Below, one piece after another: positions 10,822-57,118 of a stretch of 64,000 nt of DNA. The DNA comes from a bacterium (GTDB lineage Bacteria > SAR324 > NAC60-12), in assembly GCA_965205865.1 (NCBI GenBank), contig CBDBHR010000029.1, positions 576,001 to 640,000 of the forward strand, written 5' to 3'. How positions within the stretch are numbered: position 1 is the stretch's first letter; the number at the start of each line of letters is the position of its first letter. A model generated the notes under the pieces. That model saw only the letters and a list, made by a program, of their open reading frames with translations. It did not search any database and had not been told where the DNA came from. The translations under genes were made by a program, and so were the position numbers.

Positions 10822-11231
10822 TTACGAAACCCCCTCAACATACCTGTCGGCTGATTCAAACAATGGAATGTCACTGGAAACATCATAATATAGCCACTAC
10901 CGATTGGAAAAGGAATGAGCATTTCCGACATCTGAATGCAATTGAACCAATCCATCTGAAGAGCGTCCAAGGAATTCCTCTTTTAGTTCGTATGGATCTT
11001 CAGTATACTGAGCAGATGAAGATATCCTTTACGATCGAATTTAAAAAATCGGCATTCGCCACCTTGAACAGTTTAAACGAGCCGATCGAAACAGAATTCC
11101 GGATGGAATTAAGGCGCAGTTGATACATACGTCCACGGAAGAAACGAGGAATAGGAAATTACTTCGACAGAATCCTCTGGCGGATTGGTAGTTACGAATT
11201 GATCCTTATCGGGTATTTTACGATATCAAAA

Positions 11232-11909
11232 AGAAAGGGGGTCAGGCCTTTGATTAGGTGATTAACCTGAGTTCGAGATAAGAATTTAATAAATTCAATA
11301 TGTTATGGAATCTTCATATCTTAGAGAAACCTTGATAGGGGTCAGGAAGGCATTAGCCTCCCTGCCCTCCGAACCGTGCGTGCGGTTCTCCCGCACACGG
11401 CTCTCCAGTCGTTGGTTTCCTCATCGGGATTGGCTCGCTACCCATCGGGCTTCTTTCATGGTGAAAAGTCCGAGTTGCGCAAAGAAGAGATCGCCTTTGA
11501 CTCCGTTACCCAGAGCCGCCAACATACGTTCGATCCATATCGTTGTTTCCACCCAACTCCAATGAGGAGAGAAAGGGGGTCAGGCCTTTGATTAGGTGAT
11601 TAACCTGAGTTCGAGATAAGAATTTAATAAATTCAATATGTTATGGAATCTTCATATCTTAGAGAAACCTTGATAGGGGTCAGGAAGGCATTAGCCTCCC
11701 TGCCCTCCGAACCGTGCGTGCGGTTCTCCCGCACACGGCTCTCCAGTCGTTGGTTTCCTCATCGGGATTGGCTCGCTACCCATCGGGCTTCTTTCATGGT
11801 GAAAAGTCCGAGTTGCGCAAAGAAGAGATCGCCTTTGACTCCGTTACCCAGAGCCGCCAACATACGTTCGATCCATATCGTTGTTTCCACCCAACTCCAA
11901 TGAGGAGAG
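11232..11909. repeat. Direct tandem duplication with a 338-bp unit (REP motif + MITE left end + intron 3' end)
   Basis: 11232-11571 matches 11570-11909. The ORF track shows the same 86-aa ORF twice, 338 bp apart. Confidence 0.95.
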
Positions 11910-12624
11910 GCTTCTGTTTCCAGGTTAGTCATCTCCGACACTTTGGAAACTCCTTTTTCTTGAGGATCAACTTGATGAACTGCTCGTATCCAACTTCCTA
12001 CCCCGCTTCCCTCTTCGGGATTTTGCTTCTCCCGCTTTTCATGAAGCCTGCCTGTCAATTCAGGTTCGTGTTTGTTTTCCCTGTTGGCCATCTGCTTTCC
12101 CGATGGTGTCACAATATCCTCACCTTGTTGACAGACACAACTCCATTACGGTACTATCAGGGTTCTGACTCCTCTACCTCTCACCAAAGGCAGAGGTCTC
12201 CCTGCTTCTCTCGCTTAACCTTCCTGATGTTCCGTCCCCAACCACGTTATGCGCCTGACCCTCGTTTTATCCACCACCGCAACGGGATCAGTGAGTTTCA
12301 GACTTCGCCACGAATGAGCAAGCTCGTCGCTAACATGCCGCCGAATCGGGTTCGTTCTCCTACGGACCACCATTTCGCCTCCGGTTGCTCCCCACCCCGC
12401 CTCATGGCGACGCAGTTACCTTCGGCTACATGGCTGTGGTTTACCATGGCACGGAATTCCACCGTGCTGATTAAGCGCCTTCCCAGGCGCACTCATTCCT
12501 GCGAAAGCAGGAATCCGGAGGTATGCAGCCAGACTGAAATCCGGATCCCCGCTCCCCGCTTTCGCGAGGATGACATATACACTAGGATACTCATATTATT
12601 GAAGATTTATGTCGAACTCAGGTT
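11602..12624. mobile_element. MITE (TIR AACCTGAGTTCGA, GATT target duplication) carrying a group II intron
   Basis: Ends are aacctgagttcga and tcgaactcaggtt, with gatt on both sides. An intron-free copy is at 32273-32490. Confidence 0.9.
11673..12492 (-). mobile_element. Non-autonomous class C (IIC) group II intron with the RT ORF internally deleted
   Basis: 5' GTGCGCC, DV GAGCCGTGTGCGGGAGAACCGCACGCACGGTTC and 3' ...ACCCCTAT. The residual ORF fuses the IEP N-terminus (WVETTIWIERMLAALGNGVKG) to the C-terminus (FFAQLGLFTM). It lies directly after a hairpin. Confidence 0.88.
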
Positions 12625-48589: not shown

Positions 48590-49477
48590 GAACCTGTTTG
48601 AAAGTCATTTAATTCTCTTTAACATCAAGCAAATCATAGCGACATAGATCATGTTTTCAGAGTTTTTTGTTTTTCTTTCATAATCGATGTTGAGTCTTCG
48701 ATACCATCCAAACCAGGAAAAGGTTCTTTCGACGATCCACCTTTTCGGTAGGACCTGAAAGCCCGTTCCTTGGAGGTTTAGAGTGATCTCAAGTTCACAT
48801 TGAAATCGATTCCATAACCATTGGGCTAATTCCCCTCGATAACCTCCGTCGGCCCAAATCATCTGAATCGAAAAGAACCAGCTAAACATCGATTCCAAAA
48901 GATCGTAAGCACTTTTGGAATCGGAGGCATTGGCATCAGTGACTTTAACCATGAGAGGAATTCCCGAGATATCGACAGCTACATGCCTTTTATGCCCTTT
49001 GATTCGTTTATTTCCATCAAAACCTCGACTATCAGCCAGTTCCGTGGTTTTGACGGATTGACTATCAATCATTGCAGCACTGGGTTCGGGAGCTCTGCCC
49101 ATTTCTATTCGGGTTTGCCGATGGAGAAACTGGTGAATCAGGAACCAAGTGTAGTTCTTGCACCATTTATTGTAGTGGTAATAAACACTTTGCCAAGGAG
49201 GAAAATCTTTGGGAAGCATTCTCCATTGACAACCCGTGGTCACTACATACAAAATGGCGTTTATGATAACTCGTAGTTCCCATTTACGAAGGTGGGCTCC
49301 ACGAGTTGAAAGTTCGGGAAGGTACTCTTGAAGTCTTTCCCATTGTTTATCACTGACATCACTGTTATAACCTGAACGTTCCATGTTCACTCCTTGTTAT
49401 TAAGGTTTCATTTTTCTCAAAATGAATGTGACATGGAACACTTCCAATAGGAAGCTCAACTTATTTCAAACAGGTTC
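48590..49477 (-). mobile_element. IS5-family (IS1031-like) element, transposase 48605-49390
   Basis: TIR gaacctgtttgaaa with TSD tta. IDSQSVK, WADGGY and KRWIVERTFSW motifs. Confidence 0.93.
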
Positions 49478-49648
49478 TTAGTGACATTCGTAACTGTCCC
49501 CGGATTTTCAGAAAAAGAAATTGGCAATTTTTTAAAAATGGGATAAGGCTTACCCTCTGTAGGGCTGTCGTTAAAAACATCTGACCCGATTAAATCTACG
49601 ACAATTTTTTATTCACCAGAGAGAAGTTCAAAGTGAGAAATCAAACAC

Positions 49649-50638
49649 ATGCCCGATCCCTCTCAAGATAAACTGCACAAGCAACATGATAAATTATTCA
49701 AAACAGTTTTTTCTGATCCAAAGGAGGCGTCCAGTTTTTTTAAGAGTTATTTGCCTACATCTTTAGTGGATCAAATCGACTGGACCTCTCTCCACCTAAC
49801 CGATAAGGAATATGTGGATGAAGCCTTTCAGGCAACTGAGTCGGACTTGCTGTATCAAGCACAACGGCAGGGTAGCAACCAGAGGATCATGATCTACTTG
49901 CTCTTTGAGCATCAGTCTGAACCCAGTAAATGGATTCGATTCCGATTGCTGAAATATTGCTGTCGGATTTGGGATGATTCGTTCAAGGTTTTTGCTGAGC
50001 AACAAAAGCTCAAGCCCATCTTTCCCATTGTGTTTTATCAAGGGGAGCGGACTTGGAATTTTTCCACAGAATTCCAGGAACTTATTGAGACCGAGGGCTT
50101 GGATCGGGAGTATCTTCCCCGATTTAGCCATTTTTTGGTCGATCAATCCGGATTTGGACTCGAATCGTTCCAAGGGGAAGTCAAAGCAAGAATTGCGCAA
50201 CTCTTGCTATCTCAAGCGTTTCATGGTCAAATACAAAAAGGATTAGAAATGCTGATCCGTCTGTTGGAAGAAGTGGAGAAAACCGGAGGAATTGATTATA
50301 TTCAAGTCTTTCTGCGTTATTTTTGGCACATTCAAGAGGAGGTGTCCCCTGAAACATTAGCGCAAGCTATTGAAGAATACTCGGACTCTCAACATTTAGG
50401 AGAACAAACGATGTCGATTGCAGAACAGTTGATTGCTCAAGGCGAAAAAAAAGGAATTCAGGAAGGAATCCAAACAGGAATTCAAAAAGGGTTGGATCAA
50501 GGCGAGTTGGTGGGTGAAATTCGATTCGCCCAAAAAATGTTAAAACAACCCCAATCTCCCAAAGAAGAACTCTTTCAAAAAACAGAGGAAGCGTTAAAAA
50601 ACCTGCTTGAACAATTAGAAAAACAGCTGCCCGAATAA
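49649..50638 (+). CDS. Rpn/YhgA-family PD-(D/E)XK nuclease
   Basis: HDKLFK, SDLLY, LFEHQS and PIVFYQG motifs, with C-terminal MSIAEQL..EG repeats. Confidence 0.9.
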   Translation: MPDPSQDKLHKQHDKLFKTVFSDPKEASSFFKSYLPTSLVDQIDWTSLHLTDKEYVDEAFQATESDLLYQAQRQGSNQRIMIYLLFEHQSEPSKWIRFRLLKYCCRIWDDSFKVFAEQQKLKPIFPIVFYQGERTWNFSTEFQELIETEGLDREYLPRFSHFLVDQSGFGLESFQGEVKARIAQLLLSQAFHGQIQKGLEMLIRLLEEVEKTGGIDYIQVFLRYFWHIQEEVSPETLAQAIEEYSDSQHLGEQTMSIAEQLIAQGEKKGIQEGIQTGIQKGLDQGELVGEIRFAQKMLKQPQSPKEELFQKTEEALKNLLEQLEKQLPE

Positions 50639-51015
50639 GGAATCAAGCCTTTTATTAGACCACCACATTAAGCAGTGGGCAGACCGTTTTGACCCCATTT
50701 CATGCTTTGCGTGGGAACGAGAAAAATTTCACGCTCCTCTCAAATTAGCCCCATTGCCCTGCCTTTTTTGCTAGTTTTCTTCTGGAAAAAATCATACCAT
50801 GTCCCAAACTTCGGAACCTTCTAGAATCACCCTGAAGGACAATTTTCTTCACACTTCCTACTTTGTTAAAAAATAACGACGTTCTTCCTGGTTTCAAAAA
50901 GTGGCTTGAGCCATATCTGTTTGAAAACAGTGAATGGTTTTAGTGCGAAAATCGGAAGGGTGAAATCGAGGGAAATGGTCTGCAAATAAAACGATGCAAG
51001 GTGCCGTTTAAAATA

Positions 51016-52615
51016 GTCATCGTAAAGAACTGACTTATAGTGGTTTCCAGCCACCTTTCGTCATTCCTCCGGTACAGATCCGGACGTGCGCTGCTAACGC
51101 ATCCGGCTCCTGCTTCGAGTCAGACGCTCAAACGTTGCCGTTTGGCGCACCCTGCTTAAACCGCTCTCTGATTTTACCGGCCTCTGAGTTCCGAACACAG
51201 GAGGGCAAGCAGAATTCCTCTCAGCCAAGTCCCTTTGCTCCACAGGCTCCGTTGATTTCCTTTGCATTATTACTCTCTACAAATGATCTCATTGTTCGCC
51301 GCTTCATGCCGGGTAGAAATACGGCGCGCGCATGTTTAGGTCAACGACTTCCAATGTATCCCCCGTTTCCGGTTTCGTGGCAAAAGGGCGTCAGACCCTG
51401 CATCACGTTTCCGCAAGCCCCCCTCTCATCCCGGACGGTCGGATTTCCCGAGTCCGGTTGGCAGCAACAGCGTTTCCCCAGAAACCCTTCCCACCCAATC
51501 CGAAGCTTAAGCACTCGCCTGCATTCACCCCTGGAGTGAGTGATTTGATCTCCAGCTCGACATTCTTTGTGGTGACACTCTTGACCGACACAAGTTCGGC
51601 AGTGGTTCATGAAATGCCCGCCATTTACCGAGAGCCCCTTTGCCTTTTAGAGGTGTTACCTCCAAAAGGGAGATGTCCAAGCATCCCCTCGACCAGCGTT
51701 ACCCGGTCTTCATCGCTCATACGGACTCATGCGCCAGACCAAAATCCTCCTGCCGATTTCGGTGTTACCCTATACGGTAGGTCCTTGCAGGTTATTGCGA
51801 GTCCCTGCTGGAAGTTGGCCCTTCCCGACGTTATCTCTGTGGATCTTTCCCTGGATGCTTGGATCCATACTCCGGCTCCCTCCAAGGTGCCTGTTCCCAT
51901 TACTTCCCTTGGAACTTCGGCCTTCCCCGAGTAGCGAGCGGGTCGGCGGTTGGGCAACACACCGTCAAGCCAATTCACGACGGAAGTCTCTTTCGGAGCT
52001 GCAATCATTCACTAATGTTCAGGCCTCCAGGTTTGCTCGCCACCCTGTTGGCTCCCACTATGGACTCTCGTCCAAAGCAGACGGTGACTTTTACTTCCGG
52101 GCAGAACGCAAAGCAGTTACCTGCTAAGCGCACCGGATATGCTAGTCGCCCGAATGGGAAACTGACGACAGAGAGACTTTCACTCTCCAAAATCCACAGC
52201 CTTGTCGGCTGCTCACGCTACTACGAACTTGTCCGACTTCCTGAAGACGTAGATATCGGGGTTATTTATTAATTTTCCCGATCCGACTACCAATAGAATG
52301 TTGACAGTCGTCTTCAGGATCTCCCAGGTTCCGGTCAAGAAACTTCCACACATGCACCGGGTCTTTGACTCCGCCAGGCTCAGCCGAGACTCACGCTAAC
52401 GCCTTCGGTTGATATTGCCTTCCCCACCAAACCACAAGGTCAGCGCCTGAAACTATGATTTCGGAGCTCAATACCGAGCCTATGTTCTCCCCTGTCAACG
52501 CTTAGCGCCTATCCTTGCGAATAACCACTCATGACTCGGGGACTCGGCGGGTCGTTACTGCCTTACCGAGTAAGAGACTTTCACTCTCTATTTCTTGCCA
52601 GCTTTCCTGGCGCAC
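51016..52615 (-). mobile_element. RT-deleted copy of the 55162-57118 group II intron, hosting a second intron
   Basis: Near-identical 5' (GTGCGCCAGG) and 3' (DV/DVI ...TGAC) RNA domains. About 1265 bp of the RT ORF is missing at ~51137. Confidence 0.92.
51308..52216 (-). mobile_element. Nested ORF-less group II intron (twintron inner element)
   Basis: 5' GTGAGCAGCCGACAAG, DV-like AACCGGACTCGGGAAATCCGACCGTCCGGGATGAGAGGGGGG and 3' ...CTACCCGGC. Interrupts the host at GTAGTAGC^ATGAAG. Confidence 0.85.
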
Positions 52616-52721
52616 GGCCTGACCCCCTTTTTTATCAGTGGCCTGATTGCACACTCGTTTATTCCGACACAAAAATTCGGCGGCCATTTCGGATAAAATG
52701 TTGTTGAACTGAGCCGAGGTG

Positions 52722-52997
52722 TTACAGAAAAATGAGTGTTTGCTCACTATAGTCTCTGAGAGCGCGCAATCGTCTTTCCCCGGCAATCAGCTCATAACGT
52801 CCCTGATGCCAACGGACCACAATCGACTCGATTAACCCGTCTTGTTCAATATTGGCTGCTAATTCTTTAAGCGTTTGTTCGTCAAAATATTCACGATACT
52901 GGAAAGGAGAGGGCGCAATCTCATCAACCGGCAAGTATTCTATTCGCTCAACTCCTCCCTGCTTCCGGACTGTCATACGAATTACTTTCTTTTCCAT
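52722..52997 (-). pseudogene. ParB N-terminal domain fragment
   Basis: LKELAANIEQDGLIE..YELIAGERRLRA. Truncated near the REP motif. Confidence 0.7.
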
Positions 52998-53197
52998 ACT
53001 CCTCCTTCCCCTTTCTCGATTCTGTCATTCCGCACAATTCCGCGGATTTACCGCCCTTTCAGGACCATTTCGCTCAGAGGAGGAAGGAAGAATCGATACT
53101 TTTTAGAGCTCGACGTCTTTTTGTTTTCTGGGAATGGTTCTTAACTCAATCCTGATCTGTACCGCAACTCTTTCAATGGAAGGATTCTTTTTTGTGT

Positions 53198-53323
53198 TGC
53201 GAACGCAGTGGTAACAAGCGCCCACTCAACAGGGATGAGTGAAAGAAATGATGTTGAATTACTTATCGAAAAAACCTTGGCGATAGCGTGGGGTTGGCGT
53301 CTTTGTTCAGCGCCTTGTTCGAC
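53198..53323 (-). other. attC-like site (126 bp) downstream of the TA module
   Basis: The minus strand reads GTCGAACAAGGCGCTGAACAAAGACGCC...GGGCGCTTGTTACCACTGCGTTCGCA. It abuts the toxin stop once IS5 is removed. Confidence 0.6.
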
Positions 53324-53326
53324 TTA

Positions 53327-54252
53327 GAACTTATCCTTTAATAACTTGAAAATTGGTATTTCCTGCATTATTTTTGTCATCATGTTCAACCATAAACGCA
53401 TGGAGGCTATATGGCAAAAGTACAGTCGTGGGAAGTATCTGATTCATTTTGGGCCAGAGTGGAGCCACTGATACCAAAACCCAAACGTGACCCGAACAAG
53501 ACCTACAAGCGCAAACCCGGTGGTGGTAGAAAGCCAATGCCTGCGCGCCAAATTTTCGAGGGAATTGTATATGTTTTGCGCACCGGTTGTCAATGGAGAG
53601 CCCTTCCCAAGGAAAAATATGGGAGTCCTAGTGCCATCCATGCTCATTTCATGCGTTGGAATGAAGCGGGTTTCTTTTTGTCGCTTTGGCAAGCCGGACT
53701 TGCCGAATATGATGAGATGGAAGGGATCTCCTGGAAATGGCAAAGCATAGACGGCACGACTGTCAAAGCCCCACTGGCTCAGGAAACCGTTGGTCGAAAC
53801 CCGACTGACAGGGGAAAAAAAAGGGAGCAAGCGTCATTTGCTGGTTGACGGCCGTGGTGTCCCGCTGTCCCTCGTCGTAACCGGGGCGAACCGGCATGAT
53901 GTGACACAGTTGGAATTGGTCTTGGAGGAAATCGTCATTGCGCGGCCTGAGGGCATTGAACAACATCTGTGCGCAGACAAAGGCTACCACGGTGAGCCAG
54001 CATCACAGATCATTCGATCCAATGATTATGTGCCACATGTGAAAAAACGGGGTGAAGAGATTCAAGAAAAAAAAGCAAATCCCCAATACAGACCCAGAAG
54101 ATGGGTCGTCGAGGTGAGCCATTCATGGTTCAACAGATTTCGCAAGATAATGGTCCGATTCGAAAAATATAATCAAACTTATCTCGCACTGCTTCAATTG
54201 GCTGCAGCTATCATAACTTACAGGAAAGTTAATGTTATTTAAGGATAAGTTC
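53327..54252 (+). mobile_element. IS5-family (IS427-like) element with split orfA (53411-53848)/orfB (to 54242)
   Basis: TIR gaacttatcctt with TSD tta. An A8 slippery run lies in the ORF overlap. IDGT, ADKGY and RWVVE motifs. Confidence 0.92.
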
Positions 54253-54543
54253 TTATATTCTGTGTTTCCAGTATTCCGGATCTCGATGCAGATGCATCAC
54301 AGCTACAATGAAAATTTCTTTGTCTTCTTCCGCATATAGGATTTCGTATGGAAACCTTCTGATCAGAGATCTTCTGATTTCACCTACTATCATTGGCCAC
54401 GCCTTGGGGTGTGTCAGAGTTCTTTCAATCGTTATTTAGACCTCTACCGCGAAGTCATATCCCAAGCCTGCTTCCTTCTCTTCATAGTATTCAATAGCCT
54501 GATCAAATTCTGATTCAGCTTCCGGATGAAACAAATATTTCAT
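54253..54543 (-). pseudogene. RelE/ParE-family toxin with an in-frame TAA at codon 36
   Basis: MKYLFHPEAESEFDQAIEYY...AVEV*ITIER...RFPYEILY..AVMHLHRDPEYW. Confidence 0.85.
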
Positions 54544-54764
54544 AAGGAAAATCTCTTCCAAATTTTTTTAAATACTTCATCTCCTGGAATAGCCGCCACC
54601 TCACCCGACCTCAACTCTTTCAGTCTCCGCTTTGCAACGGCTGCCCATTTTTGATCAATATCTGATTCAGGGGGGTTAAGGCTTTTCAGTAGCGAATCAA
54701 CCACGATCACCCTCTCTTCAACTGGAAGAGAAATCGCCTCCGCTATTAGGTCTTTGGTCTTCAT
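54540..54764 (-). CDS. Addiction module antitoxin (TIGR02574-type)
   Basis: LPVEER..VDSLLKSL..W...AKRR..ELRSGEV. Overlaps the toxin start. Confidence 0.85.
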   Translation of the reverse strand: MKTKDLIAEAISLPVEERVIVVDSLLKSLNPPESDIDQKWAAVAKRRLKELRSGEVAAIPGDEVFKKIWKRFSL

Positions 54765-54852
54765 CGTATCTCCAATATAATTTATGAAAATGTGAATGAG
54801 CATTGAGAAAGCAAGAATTTGTTGTTTCCAACTAGTCTCCTTAAGCATTGTA

Positions 54853-55146
54853 CCTAAATCCTGCAATTAGATGACAATCAAACATGGAAATGGTAATATA
54901 CTCAAATAGTTAACAGCAGAATCAACATTTTAAGAGATCACCATTTCCATGAAAAACAAAGGTAGCACAAGATCGGCAAGAACGACAGCAAAAAACATCC
55001 ATATCAGCCAGGGAGGCAGAGACCTGACCGCGCAAGCAGGCTTGATTCCGGTTGTCAAATTTTTCACAAAGAAGGGATTGTTTCAAAGACAGAGCAGACC
55101 GTAGATCATCAGCGTGGCGCCACGGGTCTTTATGACGCGCTGGACA
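54853..55146 (+). mobile_element. Truncated IS1380 left end
   Basis: Matches the start of the complete copy and stops abruptly at the AAAAGGGGTCAGGCC motif. Confidence 0.9.
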
Positions 55147-55161
55147 AAAAGGGGTCAGGCC

Positions 55162-57118
55162 GTGCGCCAGGAAAGCTGGCAAGAAATAGAGAGTGAAAGT
55201 CTCTTACTCGGTAAGGCAGTAACGACCCGCCGAGTCCCCGAGTCATGAGTGGTTATTCGCAAGGATAGGCGCTAAGCGTTGACAGGGGAGAACACAGGCT
55301 CGGTATTGAGCTCCGAAATCATAGTTTCAGGCGCTGACCTTGTGGTCTGGTGGGGAAGGCAATATCAACCGAAGGCGTTAGCGTGAGTCTCGGCTGAGCC
55401 TGGCGGAGTCGAAGACCCGGTGCATGTGTGGAAGTTTCTTGACCGGAACCTGGGAGATCCTGAAGACGACTGTCAACATTCTATTGGTAGTCGGGTCGGG
55501 AAAATTAATAAATAACCCCGACATCGACGTTTTCAGGAAGTCGGACAAGTTCGTAGTAGCGATGAAGCGGCGAACAATGAGATCATTTGTAGAGAGTAAC
55601 AATGCAAAGGAAATCAACGGAGCCTGTGGAGCAAAGGGACTTGGCTGAGAGGAATTCTGCTTGCCCTCCTGTGTTCGGAACTCAGAGGCCGGTAAAATCA
55701 GAGAGCGGTTTAAGCAGGGTGCGCCAAAGGGCGAAGAGGAACCCCCATCTTCAATTCAACAATCTCTTTCATCACATCAACCCTGACTTACTGCGGAGAG
55801 CTTACTTTGATCTCAATCGCAACTCAGCGGCGGGAGTGGACGAGGAGACCTGGAATGAGTATGGCATAAATCTCCTGGAGCGGATTAACGATCTGCACGG
55901 GAGGATCCACCAAGAACGTTATCGTCCTCACCCTTCTCTGCGAGTGTGGGTTCCTAAACCGGATGGCCGTCAAAGGCCAATCGGAATAGCCGCACTTGAA
56001 GACAAGATCGTACAACAAGCCCTTGTTTGGACGTTGGAATCGATCTATGAGGAGGATTTCCTTGGGTTTAGTTACGGGTTCCGACCCGGACGAAGCCAAC
56101 ATCAAGCCTTAGACGCTTTGTATGTGGCCATTACCCAACGGAAAGTGAGCTACATCTTAGATGCGGATATTCAAGGATTTTTCGACACAATTCAGCATGA
56201 TTGGATGCTGAAATTTATCGAGCATCGAATCTCCGACAAAAGGATTCTGCGTTTAGCAGAGAAAACGTTGCGCGCCGGAGTCATCGAAGAGGGGAAGTGG
56301 TCTGAAACGGTGGTCGGAACACCACAAGGTTCGGTAGTGTCTCCAATCTATTCAAATATCTACCTGCACTATGTTTTAGATCTATGGGTTAATCAATGGA
56401 GAAGGCGGGAAGCTCGGGGGGAAGTTTACATCATTCGCTATGCGGATGATTTCGTCGTGGGTTTTCAATATTCTGAAGATGGCCAGAAATTTAATCGCCA
56501 ACTAAGAGAACGCCTCTCTCAATTTGGACTGACTTTACATGAAGAGAAAACACGCCTCATCGAGTTCGGGCGATTTGCCGCCGATAACCGGGAAAAACAA
56601 GGTCTGGGAAAACCGGAAAGTTTCGACTTTTCAGGATTCACTCATGTCTGTGACACTCGGATAAAGGATGGAAAATTCAAGCTCACCCGTCTCACCATTT
56701 CCAAAAGGTTGCGAAAGAAGCTCAAAGAGATCAAACTTGAAGCGAAACGCAAACGTCATGAAAATGCGCATGAACAAGGAAAATGGCTCAGGTCTGTTTT
56801 AAACGGTCTGTACAACTACTATGGAGTCCCCGGCAACCGGAGTTCCTTGAATGCTTTTCGCACGGAAATCCATCGGACGTGGTTCAAATCACTAAGACGG
56901 AGGAGTCACAAAGCAAAGAGGATGAACTGGGAACGCTTCAAAGTACTGGTCAAACTACACATTCCTTCTGTAAGGACAACCCACCCGTATCCGAATCAAC
57001 GTTTGAGCGTCTGACTCGAAGCAGGAGCCGGATGCGTTAGCAGCGCACGTCCGGATTTGTACCGGAGGAATGACGAAAGGTGGCTGGAAACCACTATAAG
57101 TCAGTTCTTTACGGTGAC
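55162..57118 (+). mobile_element. Full-length group II intron (bacterial class E-like)
   Basis: 5' GTGCG, DV GAGCCGGATGCGTTAGCAGCGCACGTCCGG, and DVI with bulged A ending GGTGAC. Boundaries confirmed by the second copy. Confidence 0.93.
55602..57014 (+). CDS. ltrA: Group II intron reverse transcriptase/maturase (no endonuclease domain)
   Basis: PKPDGRQRPIGI, SYGFRPGR, GTPQG, NIYLHY and RYADD motifs. Confidence 0.95.
   Translation: MQRKSTEPVEQRDLAERNSACPPVFGTQRPVKSESGLSRVRQRAKRNPHLQFNNLFHHINPDLLRRAYFDLNRNSAAGVDEETWNEYGINLLERINDLHGRIHQERYRPHPSLRVWVPKPDGRQRPIGIAALEDKIVQQALVWTLESIYEEDFLGFSYGFRPGRSQHQALDALYVAITQRKVSYILDADIQGFFDTIQHDWMLKFIEHRISDKRILRLAEKTLRAGVIEEGKWSETVVGTPQGSVVSPIYSNIYLHYVLDLWVNQWRRREARGEVYIIRYADDFVVGFQYSEDGQKFNRQLRERLSQFGLTLHEEKTRLIEFGRFAADNREKQGLGKPESFDFSGFTHVCDTRIKDGKFKLTRLTISKRLRKKLKEIKLEAKRKRHENAHEQGKWLRSVLNGLYNYYGVPGNRSSLNAFRTEIHRTWFKSLRRRSHKAKRMNWERFKVLVKLHIPSVRTTHPYPNQRLSV

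Follow-up and report, generated by a model that had tools for sequence, protein, structure and literature searches.

A protein-less group II twintron in a SAR324 bacterium and the relatives of its inner intron

Bacterial twintrons, where a group II intron lies inside another, and group II introns without an open reading frame (ORF) are both known and are held to be rare. Positions 51016 to 52615 (minus strand) of a 64,000-nucleotide (nt) stretch of a SAR324 genome (GenBank assembly GCA_965205865.1, contig CBDBHR010000029.1; the whole stretch is called the window below) carry an element that appears to be both at once, an ORF-deleted outer group II intron with a second intron inside it. The locus raises the question of what these two parts are, how one came to lie within the other, and which enzyme could have spliced and copied them. 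The initial annotation, made from the sequence letters, had called the element a protein-less twintron, and this description holds: the inner intron has no ORF and the outer one is left with a remnant of 57 amino acids (aa). We think it quite probable that the locus as a whole consists of two non-autonomous group II introns, one nested in the other, within a mobile-element-rich region.

The outer intron, its sister copy and the inserted block

The twintron starts with GTGCGCC at 52615 and ends with GATGAC at 51016. Apart from one deletion and one insertion, its outer part is about 98% identical to a full-length intron at 55162-57118 (plus strand), to which it aligned in three blocks (E-values 0 to 1e-56) when the region was compared with the window by blastn: 52631-52216 (minus) with 55146-55561 (98.1% over 416 nt), 51307-51137 (minus) with 55562-55732 (98.8% over 171 nt), and 51137-51016 (minus) with 56997-57118 (98.4% over 122 nt). 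The outer intron is the full copy minus 1,264 nt of its reverse transcriptase (RT) ORF (55733-56996), a loss close to the figure of about 1,265 bp in the initial annotation, plus an extra 908 nt (52215-51308). At the deletion junction (51137, minus), 55732 of the full copy is joined to 56997 with one shared C.

Domains I–III of both copies are recognised by a curated covariance model (CM). The core of domains I–III of the outer intron (52359..52581, minus) matched the Rfam model group-II-D1D4-6 at 167.9 bits, against a gathering score of 49, with model positions 1-225 complete, and the full copy matched the same model at 167.8 bits (55196-55418, plus). Domains V–VI of the outer intron (51016..51111, minus) scored 25.6 bits with Intron_gpII, under the gathering score of 40; those of the full copy were sub-threshold too, with 28.8 bits at 57023-57118. 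The ORF of the sister copy (55602-57014, 470 aa) matches RVT_1 with an E-value of 2e-36 and, with 339.8 bits, exceeds the cut-off of 300 for NCBIfam TIGR04416 (group II intron RT/maturase), and by its sequence it is a bona fide group II RT/maturase. It is the sole RT of the window, as no second one was found by tblastn with five RT queries across the 64 kb. The truncated outer copy retains 131 nt of the start of this ORF and 18 nt of its end, which leaves the 57-aa frameshifted remnant at 51267-51094. An RT/maturase ORF in domain IV, as carried by mobile retroelements, is therefore present in the full sister and absent from both the outer and the inner intron.

These comparisons point to common descent of the outer intron with 55162-57118, in which a single internal deletion would have removed the 1,264 nt of the RT ORF. 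As the outer copy keeps domains I–III, V and VI, it could be spliced or moved only by an RT/maturase acting in trans, and the neighbouring RT would be the obvious candidate. Such help had been suggested in the initial annotation and is plausible, this being the only RT in the window, with 339.8 bits on TIGR04416, and the outer RNA being 98% identical to that of the RT-bearing copy. A 5' exon motif of the outer intron, AAGGGGGTCAGGCC, stands directly upstream of the truncated copy (52616..52629, minus), precedes the full copy with one mismatch (55148-55161, plus), and is unoccupied at 11235-11248 and 11573-11586 (both plus). With up to two mismatches allowed, the motif has six matches in the window, where 0.45 were expected, and none of 100 shuffles reached six.

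The DNA that is absent from the full copy, 52215-51308 on the minus strand, reads TGAGC...CTACCCGGC; as RNA, it is an ORF-less group II-type intron of 908 nt, UGAGC...CUACCCGGC (51308..52215). Its excision restores the sequence of the sister copy exactly, as expected of a twintron. The insertion point lies within outer domain IV, 40 nt upstream of the ATG (55602) of the 470-aa RT ORF in full-copy coordinates, and thus just upstream of the host ORF start, as had been noted. The empty site, earlier placed at about 55560, is indeed kept in the sister as GTAGTAGCG|A at 55553-55562, where intron-binding sites 1 and 3 (IBS1|IBS3) fall at 55555-55561|55562 (plus), and without the 908 nt the occupied site is identical to it. 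IBS1, AGUAGCG, which makes up the final 7 nt of the 5' exon (52216..52222, minus), is fully complementary (7/7) to exon-binding site 1 (EBS1), CGCUACU, in a hairpin loop of inner domain I (51930..51936, minus), and the U of EBS3 (51867, minus) pairs with the A of IBS3 at 51307, the first base of the 3' exon (1/1).

These guides predict boundaries that coincide with the break points of the BLAST alignment; the insertion is thus exact, and a one-nucleotide ambiguity is resolved. The initial annotation was right that the inner element is a separate intron; its description as an element of about 909 bp beginning with GTGAGC, with a junction G that could be assigned to either side, gives way to a 908-nt intron that starts at U 52215, because G 52216 has its counterpart in G 55561 of the full copy and takes part in the pairing with the inner EBS1, which makes it exon. 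The E-values of the aligned blocks, together with the match of 7+1 nt between guides and site, exclude a chance origin of the nesting.

The inner element and its relatives

Two results speak against reading the inner element as a group II ribozyme. Curated Rfam models fail to recognise it: at gathering scores the Rfam scan gave no match in the inner intron, the best being D1D4-4 with 33.2 bits against 49 (52189-52013), and no match to Intron_gpII, the model of domains V and VI. In addition, single-sequence folds of the inner intron and of host domain IV were no better than those of shuffled sequences (z-scores 0.67, -1.27 and -0.50). The case for a ribozyme comes from comparison with relatives. 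A blastn search of the inner intron against plasmids gave five records, three of which share a 34-nt hairpin at the place of domain V and the conserved 3' end, and a scan of species-representative genomes with the pattern of this hairpin found at least 108 stretches. With the plasmid loci included, the sample comprises 115 matches in 112 loci, each locus a fixed 8-kb block, among the matches listed; this limit applies to all counts given below. Family members measure about 806-990 nt and were found in Bacillota, Actinomycetota, Desulfobacterota, Planctomycetota, Acidobacteriota, Gammaproteobacteria, Chlamydiota and Omnitrophota, as well as, judging by record title, in two archaeal metagenome-assembled genomes (MAGs). 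A few of them barely exceed the D1D4-4 threshold (50.8-54.4 bits).

An RNAalifold consensus of 30 diverse full-length members contains 159 base pairs, 111 of them with compensatory changes, arranged in six domains (D1–D6). In domains V–VI, 98.4% of alignment cells are paired, against 86.0% in shuffles (0/500 as high) and 22-43% when the partners are slid, and both-sided changes occur in 14 of 27 pairs. Domain VI forms three helices with compensatory changes in 12/15 pairs. The closing pair of domain V covaries (GC 23, CG 6, AU 1), next to an invariant A-U and a central A opposite GA, and the geometry of this domain is canonical, a 34-nt hairpin with a 2-nt bulge. The invariance of domain V follows from the construction of the sample, whereas the covariation in domain VI and in domains I–III does not. 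Because of this covariation, the inner element is, on comparative sequence grounds, a real group II-type ribozyme despite its sub-threshold Rfam scores. The inner intron does not pass the covariance-model check proposed in the initial annotation, and here a missing match, taken as grounds for dismissal, would have misled.

Transferred to the window copy (all minus strand), the consensus sets the limits of domain I at 51825..52208, domain II at 51821-51736, domain III at 51734-51627 and a short, ORF-less domain IV at 51626-51461. These are followed by domain V (51427..51460), in which AAC takes the place of the AGC triad, and by domain VI (51420-51315), where the A at 51314, at a distance of 7 nt from the 3' end, is unpaired (51314..51420 together). 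No ORF with protein-family support was found in the inner intron when the ORFs of the window were checked.

The family departs from the textbook pattern in several respects. In place of an AGC (or CGC) triad, AAC is present in all copies, including the three plasmid relatives with a domain V region, which were found by blastn with the whole element. Instead of GUGYG, the 5' end has the consensus GGAGC(A/G)GCC, with UGAGC in the window copy. Domain VI is long, its length varies, and its strongly covarying helix holds an unpaired A at -7 or -8; the suspicion that the domain V-like hairpin lies too far (~150 nt) from the 3' end was rejected from the family alignment, the gap being this long variable domain VI. 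A terminal AY closes 56 of 58 copies, and the window copy ends in GC; the last three bases are GAC in 51, AAC in four, and GAT, AGC and GGC in one each, GGC being that of the window.

The guides covary with the targets across the family. In 26-27 of 33 distinct flanks, a loop of domain I forms five consecutive pairs with the end of the 5' flank, and is thereby identified as EBS1; shuffling the flank assignment 20 times gave a maximum of 4-6. For EBS3, one column in the motif CGG(G/A)GUA-N-GGG shows Watson-Crick complementarity to the first 3' flank base in 33/40 distinct contexts, where the next best column reached 19 and the best of 200 shuffles 22. For flank positions -7 to -16, pairing with any column of the alignment stayed within the level of shuffles (≤6/33), and hence no EBS2 was detected in this alignment. 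In the window copy itself, a domain IV hairpin at 51598-51590 (minus), CGAACUUGU, is a perfect 9-nt complement to host ACAAGUUCG at 52224-52232 (minus), 9-17 nt upstream of the insertion, a match with a chance expectation of about 0.04 and no family-wide EBS2 signal to accompany it.

The EBS1 pairing reaches the base immediately before the conserved G-GAGC(A/G)GCC. The 5' end was further fixed by a natural pair of occupied and empty sites across Neobacillus and Pseudalkalibacillus genomes: the joined flanks of L061, L095 and L103 reproduce the uninterrupted domain V of L058 (L058:7303) base for base, over 46 nt in the case of L061. This places the 5' end of the family at the G before GAGC, and a start two bases before GAGC was rejected, as the occupied/empty pairs place it one base before.

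No RT ORF was found inside any of the 83 copies that could be assessed (at least 900 nt of upstream sequence), nor was an ORF shown in the matches of the five plasmid records. Among the 83, 65 are full length, domain I starting fewer than 1,000 nt (mostly 713-881 nt) upstream of domain V, and one is interrupted by an insertion sequence with a DDE transposase gene; 17 are 5'-truncated or interrupted, the truncated ones having kept the 3' end.

Within this family the window copy stands out by its ends. The first nucleotide is G in 57 of 59 copies and U only in the window, the remaining C belonging to a mis-hit, and the window copy alone ends in GGC, its penultimate A changed to G. Of 239 columns with a conservation of 95% or more in the other copies it matches 231, which ranks tenth from the bottom among 52, and six of its eight near-invariant mismatches are transitions. 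Its sequence suggests that it is probably impaired or inactive now, given the unique changes at both ends, the eight mismatches and a perfect empty site about 3 kb away that has not been invaded. Against this, an interaction of the first with the penultimate intron nucleotide once branching has taken place is reported (PMC4238363, with reference to Chanfreau and Jacquier 1993), and U1 and the penultimate G may be mutually compensating instead of disabling.

Hosts of the family and a possible source of reverse transcriptase

Both flanks are defined for 57 copies, and 33 of these lie inside another group II intron. Fourteen occupy the canonical domain V loop of an RT-bearing intron (11 assigned by script; L011, L063 and L083 by eye). 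Ten lie in domain I of D1D4-6-class introns after GUAGACAGUUAGGU, where the hidden Markov model (HMM) match of the region is split around them, and eight lie in the first domain I hairpin of introns of the same class, assigned by eye from the Rfam consensus and an abutting complete HMM match. One, the window copy, is located in domain IV. An Rfam scan of 18 loci confirmed host domains of D1D4-6 or D1D4-4 in them. RVT_1 ORFs end just before the element in L010, L014, L052, L061, L063 and L067 (6/36 upstream ORFs searched in Pfam), and RT-like sequence is present in 32/112 loci. A general preference for hairpin-loop targets was not supported, the junction falling in a hairpin loop of the minimum-free-energy fold in 14 of 42 distinct contexts and in 121 of 410 random controls; the domain V loop targets are themselves loops.

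Some copies form tandem or nested arrays with members of their own family, as judged by eye and in addition to the 33 above: a second copy follows directly after the first in L059 and L075 and 13 nt after it in L014, and in L070 a copy apparently lies within domain VI of another and interrupts it. In L057, L095 and L101 the host RT ORFs are split by further insertions of 1.7-1.9 kb, giving three-deep nesting; in L095 the extra insertion is a DDE transposase, and in L101 it is a second RT-like sequence. As an example of the 24 copies located elsewhere than in a recognised intron, Gracilibacillus massiliensis carries at least seven copies of about 99% identity (L006, L024, L033, L041, L066, L092 and L104), all within a far more diverged repeat of about 200 nt with covarying stems, and the same repeat lies empty and inverted some 60-100 nt downstream of each. 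For this host repeat, an Rfam scan of three loci (L006, L041 and L066) gave nothing at gathering score.

How, then, could the inner intron have reached its place? As the guides match the site, we infer reverse-splicing chemistry: the inner intron would have entered outer domain IV by reverse splicing at a site read by EBS1 (7 nt) and EBS3 (1 nt). An RT is required for a copy to be made in DNA, and a family that encodes none may borrow that of resident introns. Borrowing is suggested because about one fifth of the relatives are 5'-truncated with the 3' end kept, the remnant that incomplete reverse transcription would be expected to leave, and because most mapped relatives lie in RT-bearing introns. 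On these sequence comparisons, the host intron class is a likelier RT donor than an RT-bearing relative of the inner intron. The initial annotation had supposed that the inner intron probably must splice first. Its insertion in domain IV, the place of the 1.4-kb ORF in the full copy, leaves the outer core unsplit, so prior excision is not structurally required in the window; it would be required for the insertions into domain V loops elsewhere.

Extended to the family, the same reasoning would give an obligately protein-less lineage with a non-canonical AAC domain V, spread over many bacterial phyla and some archaeal MAGs, that parasitises group II introns, homes by a 7-nt guide and one base into exposed host parts including the domain V loop, and is copied by the host RT. 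We put this forward as a tentative proposal that is open to considerable doubt. Several points count against the favoured explanation as a whole, RT borrowing included. Of the mapped copies, 24/57 lie outside any recognised intron, and in 80/112 loci there is no RT within the 8-kb block, a block size that says little about the whole genome; both counts imply that borrowing from the immediate host is not the whole story. The sample was chosen by an exact domain V pattern, so its counts are not unbiased frequencies and RT-bearing relatives with another domain V would be missed, and many loci come from MAGs, which may be chimeric.

The main alternatives differ in where they seek the missing protein. 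According to one of them, the inner element would be a 909-nt GUGAGC intron with a one-nucleotide slip, the degenerate derivative of an RT-bearing intron elsewhere in the genome from which it receives its intron-encoded protein (IEP). The resemblance of a GUGAG start to canonical GUGYG would fit, as would the usual company that ORF-less bacterial introns keep with closely related RT-bearing ones, according to a 2015 review (PMC4424553). We nevertheless find it quite improbable, as the empty site includes G 52216, a base that pairs with EBS1, the base before G-GAGC is exon in relatives, and an RT-bearing parent finds no counterpart among the 83 assessable relatives and five plasmid records, none of which has an ORF. 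The same 0/83, together with the frequent occurrence of the family in hosts of the Rfam class of the outer intron, counts against the claim of the initial annotation that the inner intron needs an IEP from elsewhere. Conversely, the family might be protein-independent in the manner of HYER elements and spread or persist without any borrowed RT. The absence of an ORF in every assessed copy, the roughly 240 near-invariant columns kept across phyla and the many copies outside introns with no RT in the block would agree with this, and ORF-less class IIC introns that multiply in genomes have been described (cited in PMC11754743). On the other hand, fixing an inserted RNA in DNA still takes reverse transcription, and RT-primed copying usually leaves truncations of the kind found among the 17/83 5'-truncated or interrupted copies, in which the 3' end is kept; moreover, neither its domain V triad nor its size places the family in class IIC, for which the same source gives 0.4-0.6 kb without ORF. 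We regard protein independence as unlikely.

Two further alternatives concern the locus itself. An assembler could have joined the 908-nt fragment into a repeat-rich region with two 98%-identical intron copies 2.5 kb apart. Such a chimera would hardly place its junctions exactly where EBS1 (7/7) and EBS3 (1/1) predict them, nor would its removal restore the sister sequence to the base, and the same nesting occurs in dozens of unrelated genomes, complete chromosomes included; we give this reading next to no credence. Less easily set aside, and in our view a possible if minority account, is that the inner intron entered an outer copy, full or ORF-deleted, elsewhere and the pair then retrohomed as a composite into the AAGGGGGTCAGGCC site at 52615. 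The outer copy does stand at its own target motif, the perfect inner site of the adjacent full copy is empty, and composite mobility has been proposed for the twintrons of Thermosynechococcus elongatus (PMC2882425). The uninvaded site argues either for present inactivity of the inner copy or for such a composite arrival, and nothing sets the latter apart from a course of events in which the inner intron inserted in place and then became inactive; the window has no second copy of the twintron. With regard to the nature of the locus, all of this leaves the nested pair of non-autonomous introns as the explanation that we favour.

Known nested introns and the neighbourhood of the locus

The twintron arrangement itself is of a known kind, and it is the inner family that differs from the cases described so far. 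In T. elongatus, ORF-less TeI3 (F3) introns lie inside TeI4 (F1) introns (Mohr et al. 2010, PMC2882425). As in the window, an ORF-less intron sits in domain IV at the very start of the host ORF region; internal deletion of the ORF yields ORF-less derivatives, an RT of the host family acts in trans, and inner copies are recent and outer ones diverged. There, however, inner and outer introns are close relatives and the outer one still encodes its RT, whereas here the outer has lost its ORF and the inner belongs to a distinct lineage with another domain V and 5' end and no RT-bearing member in the sample. Nested group II introns of Methanosarcina acetivorans, summarised by Zimmerly and Semper 2015 (PMC4424553), share site-specific homing into group II introns and nested arrays without coding exons, which resemble L014, L059, L070 and L075. 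Homing there is into related introns; in the present family it is into domain V loop and domain I sites, and the invader is ORF-less throughout the sample.

Sequential splicing has been shown for a 5,400-nt bacterial twintron in a conserved protein gene of Trichodesmium erythraeum (Pfreundt and Hess 2015, PMC4649490), whose genome is heavily loaded with introns, among them ORF-less ones that rely on factors acting in trans. There, too, one group II intron is inside another, but the twintron of the window lies outside any intact gene and is known here from its sequence. HYER elements (class IIC) are also ORF-less, occur in several copies per genome and use short guide-target pairing with no detectable EBS2 (PMC11754743). 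Membership of the inner family in this class was considered and rejected on size, 806-989 nt against about 0.4-0.6 kb, and the AAC triad, the long covarying domain VI and a location mostly inside introns also set it apart. HYER ribozymes are characterised by hydrolytic cleavage of DNA, and the inner family is not known to have nuclease activity. No published description of the inner family was found in the open-access text covered.

Starting from the inner element of the window, one arrives at a set of at least 108 stretches whose domain V is unusual and carries an AAC triad, whose size is conserved, which lack an ORF and whose guides covary with their targets. The 2015 review held that few ORF-less introns would be overlooked unless their domain V is unlike known ones (PMC4424553). 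If the lineage is indeed obligately protein-less, it would be the kind of ORF-less intron that, according to this review, surveys based on domain V could overlook. It would also offer a natural system for the persistence of a ribozyme as a parasite of retroelements, and show how far the catalytic triad of domain V can vary and how 7+1 nt of guide suffice for site choice. The window could serve as a test bed for these ideas, since an occupied site, a perfect empty site and a candidate helper RT lie within 6 kb.

The surroundings of the twintron (48605-54866) form a patch of mobile and addiction-type genes. An IS4/5-family transposase (48605-49390) and a YhgA-like putative transposase (49649-50638) lie on one side. 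On the other, a 91-aa fragment of a ParB N-terminus (52722-52997) ends 107 nt upstream of the twintron and is followed by another transposase of the IS4/5 type, which is broken up between two frames (53411-53848 and 53790-54242), and by an antitoxin-like ORF (54540-54866).

Farther away, at 11200-12000 (minus), a 338-bp tandem duplication carries domains V–VI of a third group II intron; Intron_gpII matches there twice, at 11405-11335 and at 11743-11673, with 54.3 bits each. Each repeat carries, on the plus strand, one of the unoccupied target motifs of the outer intron (11235 and 11573). The domain V loop of this third intron is GAGAA, identical to the insertion site of actinobacterial members of the inner family.

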